Source: Amoebophrya sp. A120 (taxonomy: Eukaryota > Protista > Dinoflagellata). Taken from it: a stretch of DNA of 64,000 nucleotides. A program made the position numbers and the translations under genes. Shown piece after piece: positions 4,766 through 47,212 of this stretch. The stretch is taken from positions 1,949,939-2,013,938 of the forward strand of contig CAJINV010000011.1 in the NCBI GenBank assembly GCA_905178155.1, in the 5' to 3' direction. The notes under the pieces were generated by a model that made no database searches, was not told the origin of the DNA, and saw nothing but the letters and a program-made list of their open reading frames with translations. The number at the start of each line of letters is the position of its first letter. The first letter of the stretch is position 1.

Positions 4766-6456
4766 TCAAATGTCCAACTCTTTCCCCCAGGGCCCGAGTT
4801 CCTTGACCCCCTCGATTGTCGCGAAGTAGCTGTCTACCAAGGCCTTCGGGACGTCCTGGACTTTTTCGTGCGACCACTTCGCCGCCCGCTTTTCTAGCAG
4901 CAGTGCCGACACCCCCTCCGCAAAGTCCGCCTCCGGTTGAGGCCGGAGGCAGTGCATGGCCATCTTGTACTCCGTTCGCAGCGCGCTGCGGAGCGTTTCC
5001 GCGTCGCTCCGGTGTCGCTCCATCGCCGCAAAACTCACCTTCAGCGACAGGGGGGACATGTCGCGGAGAAGTTTCAGGTACTTTTCCGCAAAATCAGTTT
5101 TCTCGTCCTCCAGCCGTTGCATCACCGCCTCTACCGATTCCGCACTGTGTCCGAAGCACCGGGAGATCAGTTCCGAGTCCGCACCGGAGATGGTCGGCTG
5201 AACACCCACAGAGTCGAGTTTCGAGACCTCTTTCACCACGACATCCTCCAGTTTTTCCAAATGCGACTGCACGGCGGTCGGGGTGACTGCCCCGGTGAAA
5301 CTTCCCAAGTGGGCCTTGACCGCCTCTAGATCCTGCTGCTTCACGAAGTGCGTCCCCACACCAAAATTTACGCAGTCCGCGGCGTTCAGTCGCGCGCCTG
5401 TGAGCCCGAGAAACCGGGCGATCGCAACGGGACTGCGGTTGGCAAGGCGCGACAGGCCCCAGGTCATGCCCACATCCGGAAACAAGCCGATCTTGGTTTC
5501 CGGCATGGCAAACATGGTTTTCTCAGTCACAATGCGGATGGGGTTGTGGAACCCCAACCCAACGCCGCCACCCATCACGATCTTGTCCCAAACGGACACC
5601 GTGACGACGTTCTCCTGATTCTTTTGCGCGATCTTGTAGTCCAGCTTGTACTCCTTGTGGAAGAACTCCCCGCCCAGAGTGCGATCGGCGCACTTACTCC
5701 CTATCCTGAGTAAAAACATACCCACACCAGAGTCAGGATGGGGATTTTGCAACACAAACCTAGGAGTTTTAGGAGTCACGCATGACAAGTTTCAGTCCGT
5801 AAGGTAGTGCAAGTTAGCAAGGAAAGCCGCATCACAAATCGACCTTCTGATCCTGTTTAGAGCATTACAAGTTCCCAAACACGATTGAAAATGCCTGTCA
5901 TAGTCATGGGGTTGCGCATCACAAATGTTCCTGTCATGGCAAATCTGCATGACAACTCTGGGGTGGGAACGTTTTTACACAGGATACTCCCGCGCAACGC
6001 TTCCGCCAGGGCCGCCACGTCGCCCCCGGCACAAAACGCCTTCTCGCCCGCGCCCTCCAGCCACACGATGGCGTCTTGGCGCGGGATGCGGTTCTCGTAA
6101 ATCTCCTCGAGAAGTTCAATCATCGTGAGGGAAAGGGAATTCAACTTTTTCGGCCGGTTCAGGGTCACGCAGTGCAGTTTGGATGAAGTCGTCGAGGATG
6201 TTGTTTTACTCGTACTCGTAGGATCGTACGGTGCATACAGTACCTCCGCCTCGGTTGTACTAGAGCTGCTTGCGGAGCTGAACCGGCGAGAGGTGGCAGA
6301 GGACGTCGTGGTCGTCGTGAGAGAACAAGGAAAGAGTCTTCGCTGCTGCAGGTTCATCTGCCGAGAAGAAGTAGAGGAACCTGACGCCAGAATCTGATGC
6401 GAAACCTGCAAGACACGGGTCGCAGGGCCGCGAAGGGGGGAGCAAGTTGGCGACAT
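4766..6456 (-). CDS. HIBCH: 3-hydroxyisobutyryl-CoA hydrolase, mitochondrial (crotonase family)
   Basis: Motifs TLNRPKKLNSLS, AFCAGGDV, IVMGGGVGL, FAMPETKIGLFPDVG, DFAEGVSALL; S/R-rich transit-peptide-like N-terminus. Removing introner 5702-5986 plus one TSD joins ...LRGS/KCADR... in frame. Confidence 0.93.
5702..5986. mobile_element. Introner family C
   Basis: TIR TATCCTG.GTAAAAAC; TSD CTCCC. Confidence 0.92.
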
Positions 6457-33200: not shown

Positions 33201-36200
33201 TTTTGCAAATTTTCGGGTGGGGGCATTTTTCATTGCAATATTCTTCCGATCCCGTTTTCATCATCAGCGCCGACTGGCCAGTCTCCGCTAAGCCAACGGC
33301 CCCTGTTTGATGTCGTGTTCTCGGAGGTTTCGTGTTTTTTTCATGTAGGAGCAGTGCCTCGCTCTTGCTGGCTCTTTTCGTGCCGCTTTTCTTGTTCTCC
33401 ATTGAGGGTGGAGCAGGAGCCCTACCACGGTGGTGTCCACGCCCTTTGTGCCAGATGTCATCAACAACCTTAATATCATTGCGGCCTTTATTGCCTTCCT
33501 TGTTTCCCGTCGTAGCTGCCTTGTCGCGAGCAGATGATGATGCTGATGATAATGATGGTGAGTGGACGCGCTGGACCACTCCTACTACTTCGGGGTTATT
33601 TTCATTTTCGTCTACAACCTCCCGTAGTTGTCCATGATCTAGATCTTCGTGCTTTGGATCTTCATGCTTTACTTCCTTTATTTTCTGGTATTTGAGTCTG
33701 TGGTGGTGATGGCGGTGCAGGTTTTTCGCCGAAACGTCTCTGTGCTTTTTCGCGGCCTTTATCAAATGTAAAAATGTCTGGGTCTGGAAACTTGTACTGC
33801 TGCGTTGGGAATAGTGAATGCTCTGTAATGCACAGCCAAGCATGAGCAATATCTGCGCCTCTTTGTGTTGCGTTTTTCGCATGACAAACTGCGGTGTTGC
33901 ATGACAGGCAAAAGGGTCTCTTCTTGGACACGCATCACAAACCTTTTAGTCATGCCAGGCACGCATGACAAGTCTCGCAATCTTCCAGACCCAGACATTT
34001 TTGCATTTGATAGCCTTAACGATCAGATCATTCTCTTTTGCTCGGATCACCCCCTCGGCGGTCGCATCTACCCTCGTTATGCACGGTGCAAATATCATCT
34101 TCCACCCTGGATCATGTCTGGAAAAGCGCAAAAAACTGCTCATGCGTCCTTTCGTGGGTCCTCATACAACAAACATCTGTCTTGCATGATTGCCACAAGT
34201 TGCCCACTTGTGACCAACTTGGTACGGGGTTTTTATTTCTCATGCAGGATAGGAGTCAGTAGTAGTAGTAGTATTACCCAACAAAACGGGGTAAAACGAT
34301 AATTAGATGCGCTATCTATTTATTATCGTTAGTATTGCTGCCGGAACCGCTATCACTGCTTTCAGCTATTTCAGGCTCGTCTTTTTTCTTCTTCTTCCCC
34401 CGCGCAGGCTTATTCTTGCATTTGTCTTGGTGTTTCCGCATTCTCCCAACGTACCAGTTTAGTGCTCTGTTCTGGCTGTGCCACTCTTGTTCGTTGTGCT
34501 CGTATCGCAACTTATAGGTCCTACAGTGCCTGCACCTCAAGTACTGCTCTCCTGCTCTGTTCGTGAACATGTTAGCGGTAGGAACGCAAATCTTCCACGC
34601 CTTGCCTTGGCCTCCATATGTGTATCGGCCTGCTGCGCTACACCAGTAGTGATACTCCGATCTGCACACGCTAGGAGGATTCTGTGACCCTGGTGGCCTC
34701 TTGTCCAGCGAGGAGTTGTAGCCTACTTTTATGAAGTTCCCAGTCCTATGATCCTCCGCATGCCTCTCCATAGCGCCTGCCGACTCCACGAACGTGAGGC
34801 CGCACGGTATGCAGCGAGTTTTCTTGTGTGCGTGCTTTCCGCCACCTTTTTTCAGTTCGCGAATTTCTGGATTCCGCTGAAGTACTTCCATCTTGACTTT
34901 CTGGTCAAGCAGGGCATCCTGCTGGTGGTTTACGTCCAAAATTCGCTGTAGCATGGGGTCATCGGCAACAGGGTAGCAGGCGGGATGCTGTTGCTCCAGG
35001 TGCTCGAGAAGGGCCTCAGGCATGCCATCAGCAGGTTGCTGCTCAGCCAGTTCATCAAAATACTCTCTGCGGTCAACTTCAGACTGCGGGTCAAGTCCCA
35101 AAAAACACATGATGTTACGCGAACACCAAAAGCACTCCTCACCGCGAAAAACTTGCTCTGGGGCGCCGTCTGGAATCTTCATCTGTTGTATCATTTCCTC
35201 TACGGTGTCGCCATCCCATCCCAACTCTTCGCCGTCTTTACGAATTTTTTCCTTCATTTTCCCGAGCGACGACGAGGAAAAATACTTCGCTGCCAGCTCT
35301 TTCTCCACCTCAGCCCTTAGTAGTCGGTCTCCGTCCGCCCAGTCATCTGCTGTATGCCGGATGAAGGCCCATCGAGTCAGACAAAAATAAACCTTTTTGT
35401 TGACATTGTAGCACGACAGCTCGTTTCCTTGAGGTGGGGGTCTCCGCGTGTCCGCCTCCGCCATGGACTCCCACAGCAACTGAAGAGCCTCCGGACCCAA
35501 CTTGCACTCTTTTCGAAGAAACTCCAACGCGTCCCCAAAAAAGTCAGGAATTTTCTTGTCTCGCGCCTCCACCTCCTTCAGGTCCTGCGCAGACCTGTAG
35601 AAGTCACGCAGCCTAAGTCTCGGCACACCCAAGGCGTCTGCTTCCGCTGGTGGGCTGGCTCGCGGATAAAACTTGCCGATCAGGGCTGCTCGTACCAAGT
35701 CATTTTTTGGCTTCCGCATGGTGTGCGCAATTGTCTTCAGTTGCAGGTATCTGACTTGCGCACGGATGGGAGGAATCTTCATTCTGCGCCGCAGGCTGCG
35801 CGAACTGGCCTGGTTTTGGTCGTGTACCCATAACGGTATCCCCACGAACATCTTCATCATTTTTGTTTCAGCCGATTGTAACAAATTGAAGTGGTCCTCC
35901 CCGACAAAGCGAACCTGCAGGCCGTAGATCATGATGGAGCGGACCATAATGATCAATAGTTCCCCCTTGCGCTGCTGTGTCAATCCGGTTAGCCCCGACA
36001 CTGTCGACTTCAGTGCATGAAATGCCGACCAAGCCTTTGAAATTTTTATACGGATATCTGCGTCGTCATTTGTGTTCACGCCAAGGTTCCGGGTTTGAAT
36101 TTTTGTGATGTCATCCATGATTCTCTTGCTCAGGTTCTCACTCATCCCGCACTGGTTCAGGACTTTGCTCATCAGCTCTGTCAGTTCGTTGTTAAGTGGC

Positions 36201-39200
36201 TCAAGCTTGTTCTTGATCCGCTCGCTATTGTCCTCCACCTGCTTCAACACCTCAGCCGCCTGCCCCTGCGAAAATAGGGTGGTATCATCTGCGAAGAGAA
36301 GGCGGCCCAACAAGAATTTTATTAGCGTGTCGTCTTGGTTTTCGCCTAGCAGGACTCTCCTTCCCGCTTTCACCAGTTCGTGTATTTTTTCCTTCCGCTC
36401 CCAGTGCCACGCCTTGTCCATTGCGCTCAAACTCACACCCCAGGCTTCTTCAGGTAACTTCCGCCGCTCCAACTGAAAAATCCGCATTACAGCCGAATAG
36501 CAAACCAAGAACAAAAGGGGGGAGGATACGCAGCCTTCTTTTGTTCCGTTTTTCACGGTAAGCGGTATGCTATCTTCAAACATATGCACCGCGGATCGGT
36601 GTGAGCACCTTATCACCTGCCAACACCTTGAGTTGCCCAGCCCGAGTTCACGAAAAACGCCTTCCATCAGTCTCTCGTCGAGGCTTGGGAACGCTTTGCG
36701 TAAGTCAATGAGCGTCGCCACTAATCGGTAAAAGGTTGGAGACTTCGAAAAATGTCGGAAGTCTTCGCGCATCCGATTAAACACCAAAAGGCTGTCAAGC
36801 GTTCCTACTCCCGCTCGGAAGCCAAATGGTTCGGCGTTGAAGTATCCGACGGCCTCGAGCGCCTTGTAGAGGCGGTCCGAATAAATTTTCGTAACCAGTT
36901 TCATGAGTAACGGACTGATTACCAAAAATCTATAGTTATCGGCCGAGCTTCTTGCACCCTTGCCCTTGTACAACGGAATGTCGCGACACAAATGAAATTT
37001 TTCTCCCAGTTCCGAGAGAGGCCTCGTGTCCATCTCGGTGTTGATGATTCCCGCGATTACTTCCACCGAATCCTCACTGAAATGCTTCAGGATTTGTGGG
37101 GTGAGGCCGTGCACGTCTTTGGCCCTGCCTCCTTGCGCCATGTGACGAATCGCCTGCGCAAGCTCTTCTGCCTCCACCGGTGCGTCCAGCTCCGCTACTG
37201 TTTCCGGCAAAAGCTTCTTTACTACTTCTTTCAGCCTGCTGTCGATCGGAAGCGCTTGATCCTTGTGGAGAGGCGAATTCCCTACCATGTTGTACTGGGC
37301 GCGGGACTGGGCAGGGGTTACGTAGCACGCGCGGTCGCTCTTTCTGACCTTTTCTTCTCTAAAGAGCTGCCACATGTGCGCCTTTGCCTTGGCCGATTCC
37401 AGCAGCTGTTCAGACGTTGCGCGCGGAATTGTTTTTCTTGTTTTCCCGGTCAACATAGGCGCAATCTCAATTAAATAGTCCTGAAGCTGCTCCAAGTTAC
37501 TTATTTTCCCCGCACTGTGGCGTCGCTGCAGGCACTTGTTGATGTGGTCCCTTGTTTCGCCCGAAATCTCATTTAGAATGCCCTTCGTTAGCGCCTTCCT
37601 CGCAACTCCTTCCTCACGCAGCCTCTGGAAGGATTTCACGTCGCAGGCAATCTCGATGGCGGAATGGTCAAAAGATACTTGCGCATATGGGGCTGTGCCG
37701 TCACGGTTGCGGCCCTGTAGTGAAAATCTCCGATACGAGCGAACTTTTTCCGCCTGTTTCCCCAGTGTCAGCCAGTGGCCAATTTCCGTTTTCCCCCGGT
37801 AGGTGTGGTAGTTGTCCGCCTTGAACCACGACCCGGCCAGCACCAAACTCATGGACATCAGGTTTGCTGCGACCTGGTGCCCTCGCTGCGAGGTAACCTT
37901 GCTCCCAAATCCACCACTGATGCAGGAGCTGGCATACTCGTCGGAGCCTGCACCAATGTGAGCATTGAGATCGCCCCCCATCAAGAACATTTTCCACTTC
38001 TCTTTTTTCATTTTTTTGAAATCCTTTACCGTGTTCGAAAGGCTGCGGTCAAATGCTTGCACTGCATGGGGCTTCGATCCCGATGTGGGCGCGTAGTATG
38101 CAGCAAGGACGATCTCCGGCAAAGCAACTGCTACCACCCGCTCTCTGGCACGTACCAAATTTTCCGGAATGGGGCCCGATCCAAGTTGTTTTCTCAGTGT
38201 CAGCCCTGTTATGAGAATCCCGGCGCCGTTTATCCACAACAAGTCGAAGTCTTTTTTCCGAAGCCACCGGTACTTCTCGCTGCTGCTACCATCATTCGCG
38301 TGTCCGCTTACAACGAGATCTGCATCATCCTCCGGAATGTCATCGTCGATCATCTCCTCCACTCGCTCATCCTGGTGCAAATCAGCGTCACCATAGTCAG
38401 GCACATCACCCCCATGGGCATCATCAACCCCGTCACCAGCATCGTCGGCATCGAGCGCGCCTCGCTTGTTGAGTTCAGCAACAACAACTTCCCCCCGGGT
38501 TCTGGAAGAATGAAGAGACTTTTTACGGTACTCAAATTCACTTAACATGATTGCATCCCAACGCCGAATGCTTGCCACCCGCAGCACATGCCTAAGCCTG
38601 TCACTGTCTCTGCCTGCGCCACACATGTTCACGCATGAGAGCTTCACTCTTCCATGCCCTACAAGCGGTGGTGGGTCGTGCACACTTTCGGCGAGTTCAG
38701 GAAACGGCTCCCAGTCGACTTCGGATTTTTGCTGTTCTTCCCACTCCTTGAGAAGTCTTTTTCTGTCCTGTTCGATCTTCTTCATTGCGTTTTTGTGTCC
38801 TTGAATTTGCGGGTCGCCATTCCCTCCCTCATCACCACCAGCTGCTACTGTTACACGCGGAGGCCGCTTTGCAGAAGCTTCGTTCCCAGCTGCTTCCTTT
38901 AAAAGCCGCATACTGCTCTGCTCCTGTCCAACAACAGTGTCATCATCTTGCCCTGATGTTTCAGGTTCAGATGGCGTGGCTGTCGTACTTCCCAATGAGC
39001 GGTCATCCTGCTCGGAGCCGTCGTCTACACAAGCGCGGCGGTGATGCCAGCTGGTCTGGCCGCTACACGACGGAGCTACAGGATCAATATGGTGAACTCC
39101 CGAGCCAATCACCTCCCGATTACCATCGTGGAAGGCCTGCTGATAGTCTCCTAACCACTGCGGAACGCGACTACTCGATCCCGCCGGTGCCGGATGTTCA

Positions 39201-42200
39201 CGATCGTTTCCTTGCCGGTCGCCTGGTTCTGTCGAGCTCGTCCGCGAACAGCCTACCAGGCGCGAACTCAAAATGTGCCCCGGTTTGCCGTTGGGTAAAT
39301 CATCCGCTTTGCCGGTTTTCGGTCGTGTTTCTTCACTGTCCCGACCGCCCCAGGTCGGTGTAAGTAGAGCACTTTCGTGATTTTCTTCTGATTGGCAAGA
39401 CCAATACTTATCGCAAGTTGAAGTCGCTGAGCCAATGCGCGGGTGAGTCGAAACCGCTCCTCCAGGTGCAACAAGAGCTCTTGACGCGGAATTCGATATT
39501 GCTAGAACCGCCTCCGGCACTACTGAACTCTCACTGTCTCCCCATGGCGATGCGACATACTGTTCACCAGTTTGCACCGGTCGCGAGCTCGACCACTCCG
39601 TAGATCCACTTCCATTCGCAGTAACAGTGAAATCGGGCTGAGTATCTGGACAACAAACCCTTTCTGCGCAAACATCACAATGACTGGACTCAGGTCCTGT
39701 TTCACTTTCGTGGCGCATCCCAGAAAAACCGTCCACACCTTCCTCAGCTCCTGAGCCGAGTGGCAGCAATTCACTGTCGTCCTGATGCCGGTCCGACCGC
39801 TTCCTTTTCCCCCTTCTCCGATTAATCTCAGTAGCGGCTACCACGCTGGTGTCACGAACCTCTTTCTCGTTCTCAGGCGTAATTACTGCGTCGTACCCGC
39901 ACCGCGCATATCTAGGGAGAAGCCAGTAAAATGGTAAACTTGGGCCCCCGCTCGTCCCGGAGGTGTCGGCTATGTTTTCGACTGGGCAACGAAGGTCATG
40001 AACAAGCTGCCCAAAGGAGGTAGAAGACGTCTTCTTGCAGTTCGAATCTCGCATGTCGATGCTGCTTCTCCTTTTCTGGTTATGCTCTGGCGAGGATTCT
40101 GCACATGCGGTTTCTCGTCCTGTAGCGTGAAGATTACTAGACTTTCCACCAAATTCCCGCAATAATCGCGAACCCCGGCTTACAAACCAACAAAAAATTC
40201 TTCTGATGCTACTGGAAGCCATCGCTTTTCTGCACCATCGAGGCATGAATTTATGATGAAGCAGAGAGGGAGATGAGGACTTCGTCGAAGCCGCTGCATG
40301 CTGGCGCTTCGGCGTAATATGGAGATGAGGAAGCCAGTGCGTTCGCAAAAACAGTTCTTCCTCCGAGGTTACTATCTTCATCCGAGCGTCGTCAGTTTCC
40401 GTAGGCTGCGGTAATAGGTTGATGTATTTGGTGGCACAGGTCCAGCGGCCCGCACGGCGGCTCGTCCTAATTTTCCTCCACTTCCGATGCCAGTGCGATT
40501 CTCCTTTTGCTGTGTGAAATACTTTAGCCTTCCTGACGAAATCCCGCATGTTCAAAATCTCGATGTCGTGTAGAATCTTGCGTGCAGGAATTCGAAATTT
40601 TTTGGTGTCGCGGCGGGGCTGCACAGCTGCAGCGGATGCATCGACTGAGGAGAAACTCAGAGCCTCTTCTTCAACGTCGACCATTTTTCTAGTCCCTGCA
40701 AGCGCTCCACTTAGTGCCTGCACAAAAGCCATGAGCAGTGCCACTACTGCTGCTATCGCAATTTCAGCTCCACCACTCCCGGCCTTGACCGACGACTGAC
40801 GATTGCGATTAATGCGACAAGATGGCCCCTCAACGAGGTTGTTGCGCAACGACCGCACTGCACGACTCAACTTTCCCCAACGACAGAATTCATAACTATA
40901 GTTTGTAATCGGTGGACAATGCATATGCGTGGGGGAATCAAGCACAAAAACAAAATGAACATTGTTGCGGGATGCGCTCCGTCCTAGGTCAGGTCTGCAT
41001 TCAAGTCCACCACTGCTACTATGATCAGGAGCACTGCTGGGATGGTTACTAGTGCTATTGCTACTTTCTATGTGCGTGCCGCGTGTGACGTTGGACACAG
41101 CACTTTCATCAGCATGGTGCAAGTGGTAATGTGGATTCTTCTCAGAACTGTTGCTGCGAGCAAGTGCCCGCTTCAGCTCATCTTCTTTTTGTTTTTTCGC
41201 ATTGTGCTCAAACATTTTCGCACCAAATGCCGTTTTCATTTCTACCAAAAACGCAGAGGATTTTTTACCAATCATTGACCATGCTGTTTGTAGTTCAATT
41301 CTGCCTCCATCACCATCATCATACAACCCTTCGCCATCTTCCTCCTCTACTTTCTTGGTGCCGTCACTGCTTGCTTCGACAATTGCATTAGTTCTCATCT
41401 CCGGCTCGTTTCGTACCCGTTGTTCATGTACTGCATTATTTTCAATCCGATAGATCTCCGCGATAGGCCGGACTGCTGGCAAAGACGTGCTGACCACGAT
41501 TGTATTTCTTCGCGATATCGCATGTCCAACTTGTAGTAGTTTGCTTCTCGAGTAATAGTTTTGATTCTGCTGAATTAAGGTAGGCGACGTGCTGTTTACT
41601 GCTTTACAGATTTTTTTCTCCTTTGTTCCTGTGCATCCTGAATTACCACCATCGACTTCCGATTGAGTTACTGCTGCGAGCACGCTTCGCTCTCGGACGG
41701 CTTCGGCTCGGACGCGGCGGAGGGACCTGTTTTTGTTCTTGTTATTGTGCGAGAATTTCCCATGCAAATGTCCACGCGATACTGAAGAATCTGTCATGCA
41801 TGTTGGGGCAAAAAGAGTATTACCATTCGTGATTGCCATTTTGTCGGCTTTCCACTGCGGGGCGCCTTGCTTCGGATCATCGTCAACACAAACCCCACCT
41901 AGTGCACGCTTTAACTCCTCATCTTCATTCACATCACTGATGCGCGGCAGAGTAGCCCTCTGATTCTCCATCTCCTTCAACTCCTCCTCCGTGGCGAGCC
42001 CCTGCTTGAGTGCGAGGCGGTGCAAAATCAAGTTGCTGGGCTTCATCGCGTCGTTGGTCGACTGTTGTAAAAAAGAGCGATCTTCTTTGCGTTTTCCGTG
42101 GAAGTACTTGCAAGCGCTGAACAGCTGAGAGCTTTGCCGCTTTTCGGATTCAGCAACAGCATCACCAACCATCTTCTTCACCTTCTCCTCTGTCAACCCG

Positions 42201-45200
42201 GCATCATTGGTCATCTGGATCGGTTCTTTTTCTTCAGGCTCTTCAGGCATACGGCAGGACGGATGTTGCTTCACGTACCCAATGTCCCCGATGTTCATCA
42301 GAGTTTGAGCGCGAACGCGGAGCGTCGGCTTCCCCATGCGAGTGTGGCCCCACACAACTTGCCCAGCGTAGAAGGCCCGCGGTGTCAGTCCAACCGCATC
42401 ATCGATTTCACGCGTAAGGCAGGTAGCCACATCCGACGCCTTTTCGTAGCAGCTCAGGTGCGTAGAAAACAAGTCCTCCGGCGGGCCCACTGTGAAGCGC
42501 GTAATTCCCAGTCCTCCCTGCTCCGTGTCTTCTTTGGTAGCAACGCACTTCAGGATGTGACACGACGGCGGCAAGACCACAATGCCCTCGTCATTGAATC
42601 CAATGACATCTTCAACAACCCGACAGGCCGTGATGGGGATGGGGGTGTCGCGCACAACTAATCCCTTGCCCCGGCCTTTCGCTTCTTCCTTGTTCCAGTC
42701 GAATTTGAAGGCCTTGGCTTTTACCAGCGCGTTGACGATTTCGTATAGTTCCGGTAGATTTCCCTTGCCCCTGATCAAATAATCATCAAAAGTCTGCACC
42801 GCGTTGACAACAGCGATGTGCTGGACGTCTCCCATCTCGTAGGCATCACTGATCTTTTTCGCGCATTTTTTGTCGGCAAGCTCGTGGTACTCGTTGATCG
42901 ACTCCGGCGTGTCCAACCCGCCAAGCAACGCAAACCCCTTGTCCGCAGCGATTAAGAAGTTGTTGATGATTCCCACTGCGAACGCGATCCCAACATAGTC
43001 AAAGTGGATGGAAGTGACGGCCTTGATGATGTTCTGGATTGCTTCCCCATCAAAAACGTCAATCGCAATCTTGTCCATTTCCGCATCATGGATTTTGAAT
43101 TTTTCGAACATGTCCATCTGGTCGCTTAGGCGGTACGGATGCTTTTTGGTGTCGGCCAGCACTGCCCCCGAGCAGTGCTCCTCATCCTCCTTCTCAATTA
43201 CTTCTTTACTTGCTTCCACCGTTTCATCAAGCGTTTCAAATTCCATTTTTTCCTGCTTCTTCTTGTACGCCGCCACAGCAGCTGCTTCGCTCTCCTTGCA
43301 AAACGCGGATGTGATTTCTTGCAGCGAGTCACCGGAGGAAGAGGAAGAAGAACTCCCAGGCGCAGGGGTTACTTCCATAACCTTGTCATCGATGAGCCCG
43401 GCGAACATTTGGTGGAGATTGGCGCACACAACGTCATGACTGTGCTTCGCAGCAATGTGGTGGTTGAAAAGTTCTTGCACCTTCTGTTTTACTTCTGCTT
43501 TTTTCGTTTTTTCAACCTTGATGATCATGCTCTTGTTCTTGTCACCCGCGACCCACATGACGACAAAGTTACTGGCCTTGTCCGCCTTGTCCTTGTTGTC
43601 TTCAGGCGGGAAACGTCCGCTCCGCCTTGGTTTCTAAAAAGTCGCTAATTTTTCCGGCGGTTCGTTTTTTTCCGGTTCCCGATTCCGGGGAAGACGAGTG
43701 AACAAAGAAGACTCCCCAAAGAAGAAGAACAAAAGAGGCCCAAACGGAGAAGGACCAACCTGGTGGCCGGTAGAAACGAACCAAGACCCTTCCAGTGTTT
43801 GGAAGTGGATCTTCCCCACTCTGGTTGCCCAAAGACCCAAAATACACAATACCCCACCAGCGAAATCCCTCCTGACCACCGTCGCACCCCAGACATGTGG
43901 GAACACGATGAACATTTCCCCGGGTGCCCCGATCCACGTCTTCTAATTTGCCCTTCTAAAAGTTCCTTCTAATTTCATCTTCTAAAACCTTCTTCTAATT
44001 TCCCCCTTCTAAAGCCTTCTTCTAATTTCCCCTTCTAAAGCCTACTTCTAATTTCCCCTTCTAAAATGTCTTCTAATTTATCTTCTAAAAGTGCCTTCTA
44101 AAATGGCTTCTAAAATCCCTTCTAATTTGTTTTCTAATTCTTCTTCTAATTTTCTTCTAATTCTCGTCGAAATCCGGAGGAAATCCGGCTCCCCGGAGCA
44201 TGTCCGGGGAGCTTCTAATTTCCTTGTAGTGCAAAATCCCATTGGATTTTGCATTTTTGGATTTCGACGGCAGAATTAGAAGATGATTAGAAGTCCGGAC
44301 AGGACCATCAAAATGCAGGTTTAGCCGACATCTTGATGCTCTCCTTCCGAGTTCTGAAACCCCGTCACCCTCTCATCCTCCATTTCCCGAACAACATGAT
44401 GGTTGAAATTTTTCAACCATCACATTCTTCGGACCCAAAACATACACAAATATCCGAAAAAGGCGAAGAACATATCCCCATGAAAGACACAGACATCCAC
44501 AACACCACGGGGATAGGACACACCCACGCCAACCACACGGTGGAAAAACCACCCGGATATGTGTCGGCTCATCCTAGAACAAATCGACATCCCCTGCACA
44601 TCCGAGATAACCCAAAAACCTGCCGCAATTTTTAAATTTTAATTTTGCCGAACCACAAGACCATGGGTCGAGGCCCGCCGCGAATACAATCGGCGGCCGG
44701 CCCCAAGAGAAAGTGGCGGCGAACAAAATACACCCAAAATGGCGAGGGCGAGGCGTCGCCGGACGTAACGCTTGCAAACACCTACCGGGCGGGATTGCAG
44801 GCCAACGCCGGGGAATTTTTGAAGCGCCGGAAATTTTAGCGATTTTTTAACCAAGAAAACGGAGCGGGGTGCTCCCGCCTGATCTGTTGCCGGCGGGGCG
44901 GCCGGCTCACAGAGATCCCCACCCGCTTCGCCGCGTCGTCGTCCGACATACAGCGACAGGGNCCCGGATATGTGTCGGCTCATCCTAGAACAAATCGACA
45001 TCCCCTGCACATCCGAGATAACCCAAAAACCTGCCGCAATTTTTAAATTTTAATTTTGCCGAACCACAAGACCATGGGTCGAGGCCCGCCGCGAATACAA
45101 TCGGCGGCCGGCCCCAAGAGAAAGTGGCGGCGAACAAAATACACCCAAAATGGCGAGGGCGAGGCGTCGCCGGACGTAACGCTTGCAAACACCTACCGGG

Positions 45201-46574
45201 CGGGATTGCAGGCCAACGCCGGGGAATTTTTGAAGCGCCGGAAATTTTAGCGATTTTTTAACCAAGAAAACGGAGCGGGGTGCTCCCGCCTGATTGTCTC
45301 CATTTTTGTCCGGCTTCGCAACCTTCTTGTCAGCAGCAGTGCCGCCTTTGATTGTGGCCGAGGGCTTATTTTTCGGCGGCGCCATGTTGAGCGACTTCCG
45401 TACCTTCGGGAGGTCTCCTTCTTCAAATTCAGCGTCGAAGTCTATTCGTCGTTTGAGTGTGCGATCCTTAAACGCCGAGGTTGTGAGTACTGCTGTTGCG
45501 CTTGTTCTTTTCCGGTCCGCAGGGGATGTCCATAAATTTTCGTTCGTGTTTGACATGTGAATAAAAATCAATCCTATAGCGCGGCGGAATCAGAGATAGT
45601 CTGAGTGTGTTGTGGTGATTAGCAAGCGATACGGGTTCAGATTGTACACAAGTATTTTCGATTCAGATAGCAGTAGACAAAGAGCAAGGTAGTAGTAAAT
45701 CTTAAAACTTCAAGGCAGGTGAGAAATCGCTACGACACCAACACGGCTAATCTAGGGTGGAGGTTGTGATCGTGATCTCACGCAGATCTTGTTATTTCGT
45801 TGGATTTGCAAATTAGATTTTGTTGAAGCTATTCACTTTTTTTCGTTCTTTCGTGTTTTTGATTTTGTAGTGAGGTGCAGTATATCTATCGTTATTTCCG
45901 TGTTGGTGATAATGTCAATAAATCTTAAGCAAGTGATCTGGTAAAGGCTAACGTTTCTGATCTACGTTGTCGCTGTGGTGATATTAATACTCTAAGACCC
46001 CCCCCTCCCACCAGTAGGCGAGGAGAGAATTTCAAGGGTGCCTTGAGCCAAAAAGTCAAGATAAAGACCTGTTCACCGAATCTGTCATGCCTTCCAGACC
46101 TCCTAGTGTGCCTCCCTGCGCCATCGGCCACCTGCATGACACGTTTTATTGCACCCTTCCAGACTTCTCAGATACAGATGACAAATATTTGCATTTCACA
46201 CTCGTGCTGCCGCTGCCCTCTCTACTACTAGTACTCGCTTCTCCCTGTTCCGTCGAGAGGTGCGCTTTGGCAGCACTGATCGCCAGCTGCTCCTCGGCTT
46301 GTTTCGTCCCGGCGTGAACACTTGTGCTACTCCGACTTGAGAGTTTATCTTTACTCCGGCGGTTGGCAGAGGTTCTTCGTTTCCGTTTGCTATAATTTTG
46401 CGTGGAAGTAGATTTGTTTTTTTGCAAGGAGTGCGTGAGTGCCGCGGTTGTAGAGCTGCGTGGTCCCGCTATCATGTGGAGGGAAATCAGGCACGCGCCG
46501 ACGGACCGTAGGACCCGCAGCCGGTGGAGGGACTTCTTGCTGATATCTCGCGAGAAGAGTGCAGGTGGAGTCAT
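21202..46574 (-). CDS. Giant 29-exon gene (~1873 aa): low-complexity N-terminal half, Thr-rich mucin tracts, Cys-rich, WSC-like and PAN/apple-like modules, C-terminal degenerate MsrB-like domain
   Basis: Hand splicing of 26 TIR introns (element plus one TSD removed) and 2 GT-AG introns (26202-26462, 23531-23701) gives 5622 nt, divisible by 3, from ATG 46574 to TAA 21202. Motifs YVGCWYD...CHKYC...DYCSC (WSC-like), CGAMCWIYPSCVA...CVLY (PAN-like), HYGWMVF...HLGYNIPDD...RYYVNLVCVAG. Confidence 0.75.
21323..21575. mobile_element. Introner family B
   Basis: Family B TIR; TSD GTCGC. Confidence 0.9.
22027..22359. mobile_element. Introner family G
   Basis: Family G TIR; TSD GCCAG. Confidence 0.88.
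22429..22582. mobile_element. Introner family F
   Basis: Family F TIR; TSD GTTCC/GCTCC. Confidence 0.85.
22849..23101. mobile_element. Introner family B
   Basis: Family B TIR; TSD AGCAG/AGCAC. Confidence 0.88.
23220..23469. mobile_element. Introner family B
   Basis: Family B TIR; TSD CTGTC. Confidence 0.92.
23809..24060. mobile_element. Introner family B
   Basis: Family B TIR; TSD CCGTC/CCGCC. Confidence 0.88.
24500..24773. mobile_element. Introner family B
   Basis: Family B TIR; TSD ATCCG. Confidence 0.88.
24912..25217. mobile_element. Introner family B (degenerate)
   Basis: Degenerate TIR; TSD CGCAG/TACAG. Confidence 0.78.
25267..25475. mobile_element. Introner family E
   Basis: TIR TATC....GAAAAAACTGTTTCACTGTGA; TSD AACTC. 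Confidence 0.92.
25490..25760. mobile_element. Introner family I (single copy here)
   Basis: TIR T.T.AC.TGCTCA...TTACA.TCTCAAACGTT; TSD TCATG. Confidence 0.82.
25893..26148. mobile_element. Introner family B
   Basis: TATGCAT ends; TSD GCAGC. Confidence 0.88.
26544..26823. mobile_element. Introner family C (left end TGT)
   Basis: Family C TIR; TSD GAAAT/GAAAG. Confidence 0.88.
27183..27474. mobile_element. Introner family B
   Basis: Family B TIR; TSD TGGTG/TGGTT. Confidence 0.83.
27583..27809. mobile_element. Introner family H
   Basis: TIR TATC.T..GAAAAAAGTGTTACAGT; TSD CATGT. Confidence 0.9.
27919..28205. mobile_element. Introner family B
   Basis: Family B TIR; TSD GCCAG. Confidence 0.9.
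28305..28557. mobile_element. Introner family B
   Basis: Family B TIR; TSD GTTGG. Confidence 0.92.
28610..28884. mobile_element. Introner family B
   Basis: Family B TIR; TSD CGGGG. Confidence 0.92.
28970..29178. mobile_element. Introner family G
   Basis: Family G TIR (right end GTA); TSD CACTC. Confidence 0.85.
30613..30888. mobile_element. Introner family B, diverged TSD
   Basis: Family B TIR; flanks CGCCC/CGGGT; removing element +5 nt still restores frame. Confidence 0.8.
30989..31202. mobile_element. Introner family E/H-like
   Basis: TATC..AAAA..GTG.AAGTGTAA TIR; TSD TTCAG. Confidence 0.88.
31362..31613. mobile_element. Introner family B
   Basis: Family B TIR; TSD ACTTC. Confidence 0.92.
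31701..31911. mobile_element. Introner family H
   Basis: Family H TIR; TSD CCTGC. Confidence 0.9.
31948..32227. mobile_element. Introner family C
   Basis: TIR TATCCTGAGTAAAAACGTACCCACACCA; TSD AACGA. Confidence 0.93.
32295..33240. mobile_element. Introner (G-related) enlarged by a nested insertion
   Basis: TIR TATT.CAATGAAAA.TGCCCC; TSD TTCTT. Confidence 0.88.
32467..33083. mobile_element. Unknown ~617-bp insertion flanked by a 20-bp direct repeat, nested in introner 32295-33240
   Basis: TGCAGCCGGGCCTGTCATGT at 32447-32466 and 33084-33103. Confidence 0.55.
33760..34012. mobile_element. Introner family B
   Basis: Family B TIR; TSD GCCTT. Confidence 0.92.
34316..45556 (-). CDS. Retrotransposon polyprotein (3080-aa ORF 34316-43558, extended to ~3180 aa when element 43602-45293 plus one TSD is removed)
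   Basis: APE ~38650-37650 (LSCVNMCG, DAIMLSE, GGDLNAHIG, SFDHSAI); RT ~37130-36000 (IPLYKGKG..NYR, FGFRAG, IDLRKAFPSL, GTKEGCVSSPLLF, LLFADD); C-terminal Zn-finger-like motifs CIPC..H..H and CRHC..H..C. Confidence 0.9.
43602..45293. mobile_element. Non-autonomous TIR DNA element inserted in the retrotransposon ORF (true length probably ~1.28 kb)
   Basis: ~60-bp imperfect TIRs starting TCAGGCGGG; 6-bp TSD TTGTCT (43596-43601, 45294-45299); internal CTTCTAA array; contains an N and a 331-bp exact duplication. Confidence 0.85.
43940..44220 (+). repeat. CTTCTAA motif array (~12-13-bp period) inside the TIR element
   Basis: Roughly 20 copies of (C)TTCTAA with variable spacers; inverted TTAGAAG copies near 44275-44293. 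Confidence 0.9.
46042..46053 (-). other. Relict dinoflagellate spliced leader (3' 12 nt)
   Basis: Minus strand reads TTTTGGCTCAAG, identical to the 3' end of DinoSL (DCCGTAGCCATTTTGGCTCAAG), and abuts the retroelement TSD. Confidence 0.85.
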
Positions 46575-47212
46575 CGTTGCCAAGTCAAGCTGACACTTCT
46601 ACACGTCAAATATGAATAAAACACACACACGAGCTGCACGATCAAAACCAAAACCAAAGCCACGAAAACACGAAGAGAAAATAAATACAACCTGACGTGC
46701 GCTGGCGCTACGTGTAAGAATCAGAGTTAAGCACTTCCTCTCCTATCTGTGTATGCGGGACACGACCCGCTTCTGCCCTCAGACCTCAAAACCTCGCCCC
46801 TTTTTTTTATTTTCATCGCGCTTCCTCATTTGACTGCTTTTTATTCAATCTTCACTCGGCGTTCGCAAGTACAAGCAAGGACAACACAAGGACAAGCAGC
46901 TTGGGCGTGCACTATTTGATAGGTAACTGCAGCAGCCCCTTCGCCATGCACTTCTTCATCAGGGTCGCATTGAGCGCCGCCTTCCTGGCATTTCATTGCC
47001 CGCTCAACAAAGGTTTCACATTTTATCGTGCTTCTACATCGATCTGCAAGAAGAACTTGCGTTCTGAGTTCGCGTTGATTCCCGAGCTGTAGTGCTGTCA
47101 AGAATTTATCTAACATCGTGTCAAGAATTAATCTCTAACACACTTCATCGCTGGCTTCCAAAAGCTTAGTAGAGAGGAGGGTCAATCTCGATGTAAAAAT
47201 ATTTCGTCCTCA

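Follow-up and report, generated by a model that had tools for sequence, protein, structure and literature searches.

The locus described here raises the question of how a non-LTR retrotransposon (LINE) of a dinoflagellate came to begin with the 3′ end of DinoSL, the leader that dinoflagellates trans-splice onto their mRNAs, and whether that sequence records a single trans-splicing event or a recurrent step in the propagation of the element. The window, by which we mean the whole stretch of 64,000 nucleotides of Amoebophrya sp. A120 DNA that was analysed, harbours an 11.8 kb LINE on the minus strand, which is flanked by 5-bp target duplications, carries a 3′ simple-repeat tail and has no LTRs. 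Its borders are formed by the following features:

46054..46058, minus strand: 5′ target-site duplication TGACT (AGTCA on the plus strand)
46042..46053, minus strand: relic spliced leader, the 3′ 12 nt of DinoSL, which are the first bases of the LINE
34274..34294, minus strand: 3′ stem-loop ACCC...GGGT directly before the tail, common to the related loci L001 and L002, not clearly present in L003
34259..34273, minus strand: (TAC)5 tail; the tails of relatives are (CAT/ATC)n
34254..34258, minus strand: 3′ target-site duplication TGACT (AGTCA on the plus strand)

A first-pass annotation had described the element as bounded by AGTCA direct repeats and as ending in (TAC)5, and both were located, the repeats at 34254-34258 and 46054-46058 and the tail at 34273-34259 of the minus strand. 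In the span that it assigned to the element, 34259..46058, position 34259 is the last base of the tail, and the 3′ repeat falls just beyond it. The relic, TTTTGGCTCAAG, sits at 46053-46042 directly inside the 5′ duplication of the LINE, and the claim that the first 12 nt of the element represent the 3′ end of DinoSL was borne out by an exact 12/12 match to the leader as printed in PMC6616646 and PMC12014239. The 3′ junction of the relic is the end of the SL exon, the bases right after it in the LINE are GC, and the relic is without the internal AG of the SL while TTTTG and the terminal AG are kept. It is the single exact match in the 64-kb window when both strands are scanned, and no other SL suffix of at least 8 nt was found on the minus strand of the window. 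Under Markov models of order 2-4 the 12-mer is expected by chance 0.008-0.017 times per window, and the chance of it lying at most 10 nt from a given element end is 1-3e-6. The 28 nt upstream of the relic AG are T-richer than those upstream of 97.6% of minus-strand AGs, which is partly due to the Ts of the relic itself.

The sequences on either side of the LINE join into a single introner of about 320 bp, which constitutes the non-canonical intron 1 of a host gene:

46201..46574, minus strand: host gene exon 1, whose frame continues in the exons at 34072-34013 and from 33754 down
46059..46200, unstranded: host introner (intron 1), upstream half
34078..34253, unstranded: host introner (intron 1), downstream half

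When this introner and the next are removed, the host frame reads through three exons and 324 aa on the strand of the LINE, in agreement with the earlier claim that the element lies sense to the host gene; the one copy for which orientation could be scored (1/1) is thus a sense insertion in intron 1, and the host gene is intact. The first-pass annotation had also called for a search for the 12-mer at the same site in uninterrupted introners, and it was absent from all of the aligned family copies (0/10). A chance match, or a sequence which already belonged to the introner, was rejected on the grounds of these ten empty introners and of a chance of about 1e-6 at the element end, and its probability is negligible. 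Stretches of the host gene, including window positions 31360-30890, recur around further introners (for example near 33270, 32270 and 31310), which suggests internal exon duplication. Elsewhere in the window, an ORF of the enoyl-CoA hydratase/isomerase family at 4766-5791 of the minus strand is co-oriented with other long ORFs.

The coding part of the LINE establishes to which class of elements it belongs, and comprises:

45294..45556, minus strand: start of the single ORF, with the ATG at 45556, 87 codons
43602..45293, unstranded: inverted-repeat insertion of 1,692 bp, which splits the LINE ORF after 87 codons
34316..43595, minus strand: remainder of the single ORF, 3,093 codons without a stop
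42158..42640, minus strand: N-terminal domain, common to one Amoebophrya AT5 relative (P0024; 28% identity, E 4e-7)
37559..38656, minus strand: APE-type endonuclease, in which the motifs N, E, Y, D-x-N and DH are all recognizable
36185..36943, minus strand: reverse transcriptase core, Pfam RVT_1 (E 5e-8)
34748..34813, minus strand: C2H2-type zinc-finger motif, kept in relatives

The ORF amounts to about 3,180 codons in total and is in frame once the insertion at 43602-45293 is removed. The predicted APE endonuclease, which lies upstream of the reverse transcriptase (RT) in the ORF, was modelled with a pLDDT of 80 and was matched by Foldseek to the L1 endonuclease 1vyb (E 2.7e-9), the model also resembling AP endonucleases at about 1e-9, while the best PDB matches of the RT were L1 ORF2p and R2, which is the non-LTR type. 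The LINE belongs to the APE-type non-LTR retrotransposons. For the N-terminal domain at 42158-42640 an ORF1-like role is possible. Between this domain and the APE, the region 43595-38660 encodes approximately 1,000 residues of low complexity with hydrophobic stretches in an open frame; BLAST gave no relative for this region, and a similar-looking one occurs in the A120 relative P0020. At one column of the APE alignment, which we take to be that of L1 D205, 13 of the 14 aligned relatives have Asp and the window copy has Gly, as does P0040. The copy is full-length and young enough to have no stops, and it is probably disabled, owing to the insertion that splits the ORF and to the replacement of this Asp by Gly.

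The insertion is flanked by a 6-bp duplication, AGACAA, at 45299-45294 and 43601-43596, and contains the sole N of the window (44962) and an internal duplication of 332 bp, the latter being backed by DNA contigs in which raised depth and the internal junction were both seen. The possibility of a misassembly at the N was weighed and rejected, as the two halves of the LINE agree in target duplication, introner and reading frame and the duplication is present in DNA contigs. The insertion might be removed by splicing in the manner of an introner, and the LINE ORF would then be restored. It is non-coding, has imperfect terminal inverted repeats of about 60 bp, of which the 332-bp copy represents its own end, and carries a 13/26-bp tandem array at 43940-44160; its end is matched by other contigs. 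Another inverted-repeat element, with an open frame of 218 codons, occupies positions 1-770 of L001, upstream of the related LINE copy in that locus.

Upstream of the ORF, the relic is followed by a long leader and overlaps a predicted structure:

45557..46041, minus strand: leader without ATG, 485 nt
45989..46048, minus strand: predicted 5′ hairpin in which the 3′ part of the relic is paired with LINE sequence, -30.6 kcal/mol

The leader contains no ATG where about 7 were expected, and was ATG-free in 0 of 2,000 dinucleotide shuffles; of 1,271 stretches of 485 nt on the minus strand, only 2 are free of ATG. CAT, the reverse complement of ATG, is depleted as well (1 against 10 expected), which means that scanning is not the sole possible cause of the ATG-free leader and weakens the argument from scanning. 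Without the relic the predicted hairpin has -21.7 kcal/mol, and an equally stable one is obtained with 2.9% of the 12-mers when these are shuffled and 1.7% when they are random; the pairing of the relic is a weak, post hoc observation. No Rfam ribozyme matched the 5′ end of the LINE, and an HDV ribozyme, suspected from a TCCTCGC motif, was discarded as the best descriptor fit had 8 mismatches and 62 of 300 shuffles fitted equally well or better. A tandem second relic was likewise sought in the 120 nt that follow the first and was not found, the best match of 7/15 being at background level.

Relatives of the LINE were detected at both protein and nucleotide level. The 11 closest protein matches have 36-43% identity, and six of the seven that were looked up are from Amoebophrya A120 and AT5. 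With an E value of 1e-30 as the upper limit, HMMER returned 35 proteins, several of which have 900-1,100 residues before the APE, indicating that a long single ORF is common to the group. Taken together with the density of introners, these relatives place the window in Amoebophrya or in a syndinean close to it. More distant matches are mostly RT proteins of approximately 1,000-1,300 aa, many with an APE and some with C2H2, and the nearest outside relatives are APE-RT-C2H2 proteins of about 1,000-1,060 aa; a search for proteins of comparable full length found none. At the nucleotide level, three related loci were obtained from metagenome contigs (L001-L003), with none from viruses or prokaryotes. 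All three lack their 5′ ends, L002 and L003 stopping inside the ORF at contig ends and L001 having the appearance of a 5′ truncation; the first 1.6 kb of L001 offers an SL match no better than 8/12. AGTAC follows the tail in L001 (5850-5856) and L003 (4384-4390), with L002 and the window copy differing, which may reflect a weak target preference. A DNA contig covering 45265-47000 crosses the 5′ junction of the LINE unbranched at a depth of 44, equal to that of its neighbours. No other contig with at least 88% identity covered the leader, so that a second 5′ junction was not found among these contigs, which are probably the window's own source and in which rare variants drop out. No read of two RNA runs mapped to 45200-47000, an outcome that speaks neither for nor against SL-headed transcripts.

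The exactness of the SL 3′ end, its position directly against the target duplication, its absence from empty introners and the ATG-free leader lend good support to the earlier proposal that the RNA which was reverse-transcribed carried a trans-spliced SL. It is established for dinoflagellates that retroposed mRNAs leave SL relics (PMC12014239, PMC5585692, PMC6050394), and in Amoebophrya 18.5-37.8% of transcripts showed the DinoSL, in the form of a 13-nt stub (PMC7789003), a length close to the 12 nt of the LINE relic. The window copy was most likely reverse-transcribed from the LINE's own SL trans-spliced mRNA, and the following sequence of steps may be envisaged. A parent copy would be transcribed from a point upstream of what is here 46041, where the spliceosome would join DinoSL onto the RNA; the capped RNA would be scanned through the ATG-free leader and then translated, and the LINE protein would bind the 3′ hairpin and tail of its own RNA, nick the DNA and copy the RNA, with reverse transcription presumably halting 12 nt into the SL and joining at the run of Ts. 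A LINE mRNA made in an SL-trans-splicing cell would be trans-spliced, and the 5′ end of any complete retrocopy would then fall within the SL, just as in retrogenes.

For the cycle of the family, which is a separate matter, we settle on re-use of the terminal AG of the relic as the next acceptor, at slightly less than even odds; transcription would then come either from host read-through or from an internal promoter that fires upstream. The truncation of the relic removes the internal AG of the SL, for which reason no tandem relics are expected, and none were seen. This combination fits re-use of the terminal AG, and fits equally a first-time splice at an acceptor encoded by the element. In retrogene relics, re-splicing is described as normally taking place at the internal AG of the SL, thereby generating tandems, and the terminal AG of known relics as left unspliced in mRNA (PMC12014239), the latter counting against such re-use. 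Trans-splicing removes all sequence upstream of the acceptor, and an SL-headed copy should therefore be unable to inherit an upstream promoter. In its most far-reaching form the proposal would be that the family has neither a promoter nor a ribozyme of its own, that SL trans-splicing defines, caps and releases its 5′ end, that the terminal AG of the truncated SL becomes the next acceptor and that the same RT writes SL-relic retrogenes; we put this forward tentatively and consider it doubtful as a whole. The first-pass idea of promoterless release from host read-through at the relic AG is a coherent hypothesis, with a single 5′ end known. In competition for an acceptor further downstream, cis donors are stated to beat the SL (PMC4558846, which cites Hastings 2005), although the intron in question here is non-canonical, and Farhat et al. 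report seeing no evidence of polycistronic transcription in Amoebophrya (PMC7789003), both of which argue against release of the LINE from host intron 1; the interrupted ORF of the copy also cuts against a promoterless cycle at this locus.

The same origin of the 12-mer, combined with a different cycle, is assumed if the acceptor of the source copies is preceded by an outron and a promoter and these copies propagate as unspliced RNA, in which case the window copy would be a dead end made from a trans-spliced message, with its upstream part lost. LINE proteins prefer the RNA from which they were translated, a preference by which the normal template should rather be the spliced message; this speaks against such a dead end, as does the absence of any longer copy from the contigs with at least 88% identity. 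It is, however, in keeping with the single SL-headed 5′ end seen so far, with C. elegans Cer1, whose genome-length RNA is described as SL1-free while a subgenomic RNA takes SL1 (PMC3315495), and with the SL-free RNA reported for L1Tc in a trans-splicing host (PMC3383444), and we judge it to be rather unlikely. The SL might instead have been captured once and now be a permanent 5′ end, transcription being driven by an internal promoter or by TTTG acting as a portable core promoter. Song et al. propose TTT(T/G) in retrogene relics as a core promoter (PMC5585692, PMC6050394), and TTTTG is retained here; pairing of the relic with downstream LINE sequence is also possible (p about 0.02-0.03, post hoc). 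The 12/12 match nevertheless suggests a recent addition, and a promoter downstream of the relic would be expected to shorten the LINE at every round, the first AG inside the LINE lying at +35, which leaves a fixed relic improbable.

Still less probable is an origin of the first tens of bases as SL exon plus SL intron, through an RT that switched to SL RNA or through a parent copy located in an SL gene. The GC after the exon end would suit this, given that the donors of SL genes are described as either GU or GC and the SL introns of Amoebophrya as variable, and so would the stem-loop that follows the relic. No SL or snRNA family in Rfam matched the 5′ end at E up to 10, though, a poly-T terminator was missing 30-60 nt downstream of the relic, and no SL sequence was found in the 3′ flanks of the window copy and L001-L003, so that the LINE family does not look specific for SL genes. 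Reverse transcription of the element's own trans-spliced mRNA is the explanation that we prefer for the relic.

Non-LTR elements that are inserted in SL RNA genes, namely SLACS/CRE/CZAR and NeSL-1, have an RLE nuclease. The LINE described here differs from these in its APE fold, its insertion site in an introner and its non-SL flanks, and is not of the CRE/SLACS/NeSL type. LINEs of the RTE group have a single ORF with an APE followed by an RT, a short 3′ UTR and a microsatellite tail; the layout of our element is RTE-like by architecture alone, and differs by about 1,750 additional N-terminal residues in frame. R2 is a site-specific, RLE-type element. Its release from a host co-transcript (PMC3774820) resembles the promoterless logic proposed above, with the distinction that R2 self-cleaves and release of the LINE would be performed by the spliceosome. 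L1Tc/ingi of trypanosomes is also of the APE-type non-LTR class, resides in a host that trans-splices and has its genes in co-oriented blocks, and faces the same 5′-end problem (PMC3383444); it is reported to possess a 77-nt internal promoter with an HDV-like ribozyme and SL-free RNA, whereas the LINE carries the SL and yielded no ribozyme in our searches. The closest parallel in sequence is provided by the DinoSL relics (DinoRL) of dinoflagellate retrogenes, where, as here, the 3′ part of DinoSL has been written into DNA as the 5′ terminus of an RNA that was retroposed (PMC12014239, PMC6050394, PMC5585692). In contrast to those retrogenes, the present case concerns a LINE of autonomous type with target duplications and a tail, and its relic is only 12 nt long, is without the internal AG at which re-splicing usually occurs and is separated from the ATG by 485 nt.

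Song et al. describe the enzyme of dinoflagellate mRNA recycling as unknown, Ty1/copia being the candidate that they prefer, though on no direct evidence (PMC5585692, PMC6050394). An SL-headed LINE copy with target duplications suggests that a non-LTR RT is able to reverse-transcribe SL-capped RNA as far as the leader, and makes the LINE RT a candidate engine for SL-relic retrogenes. We found no description of SL-headed LINEs in the literature searched, a search in which most subscription journals and Repbase fell outside the coverage. Should the LINE indeed cycle through the AG of its relic, trans-splicing would represent a third solution to the 5′-end problem of LINEs, beside internal promoters and ribozymes. 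Amoebophrya branches early among the dinoflagellates and its genomes are small and well assembled, and the question can be tested computationally.

A separate observation concerns giant viruses. A scan of IMG/VR contigs with a DinoSL 16-mer identified at least 151 loci (L004-L154), many of which are labelled GVMAG. Among the matches listed, the whole 22-nt SL was present in 135 of 158, the DNA before the SL was 87% A+T, an ATG followed at a median of 47 nt, and often many matches occurred on one contig. These matches apparently represent hard-wired leaders in giant viruses.
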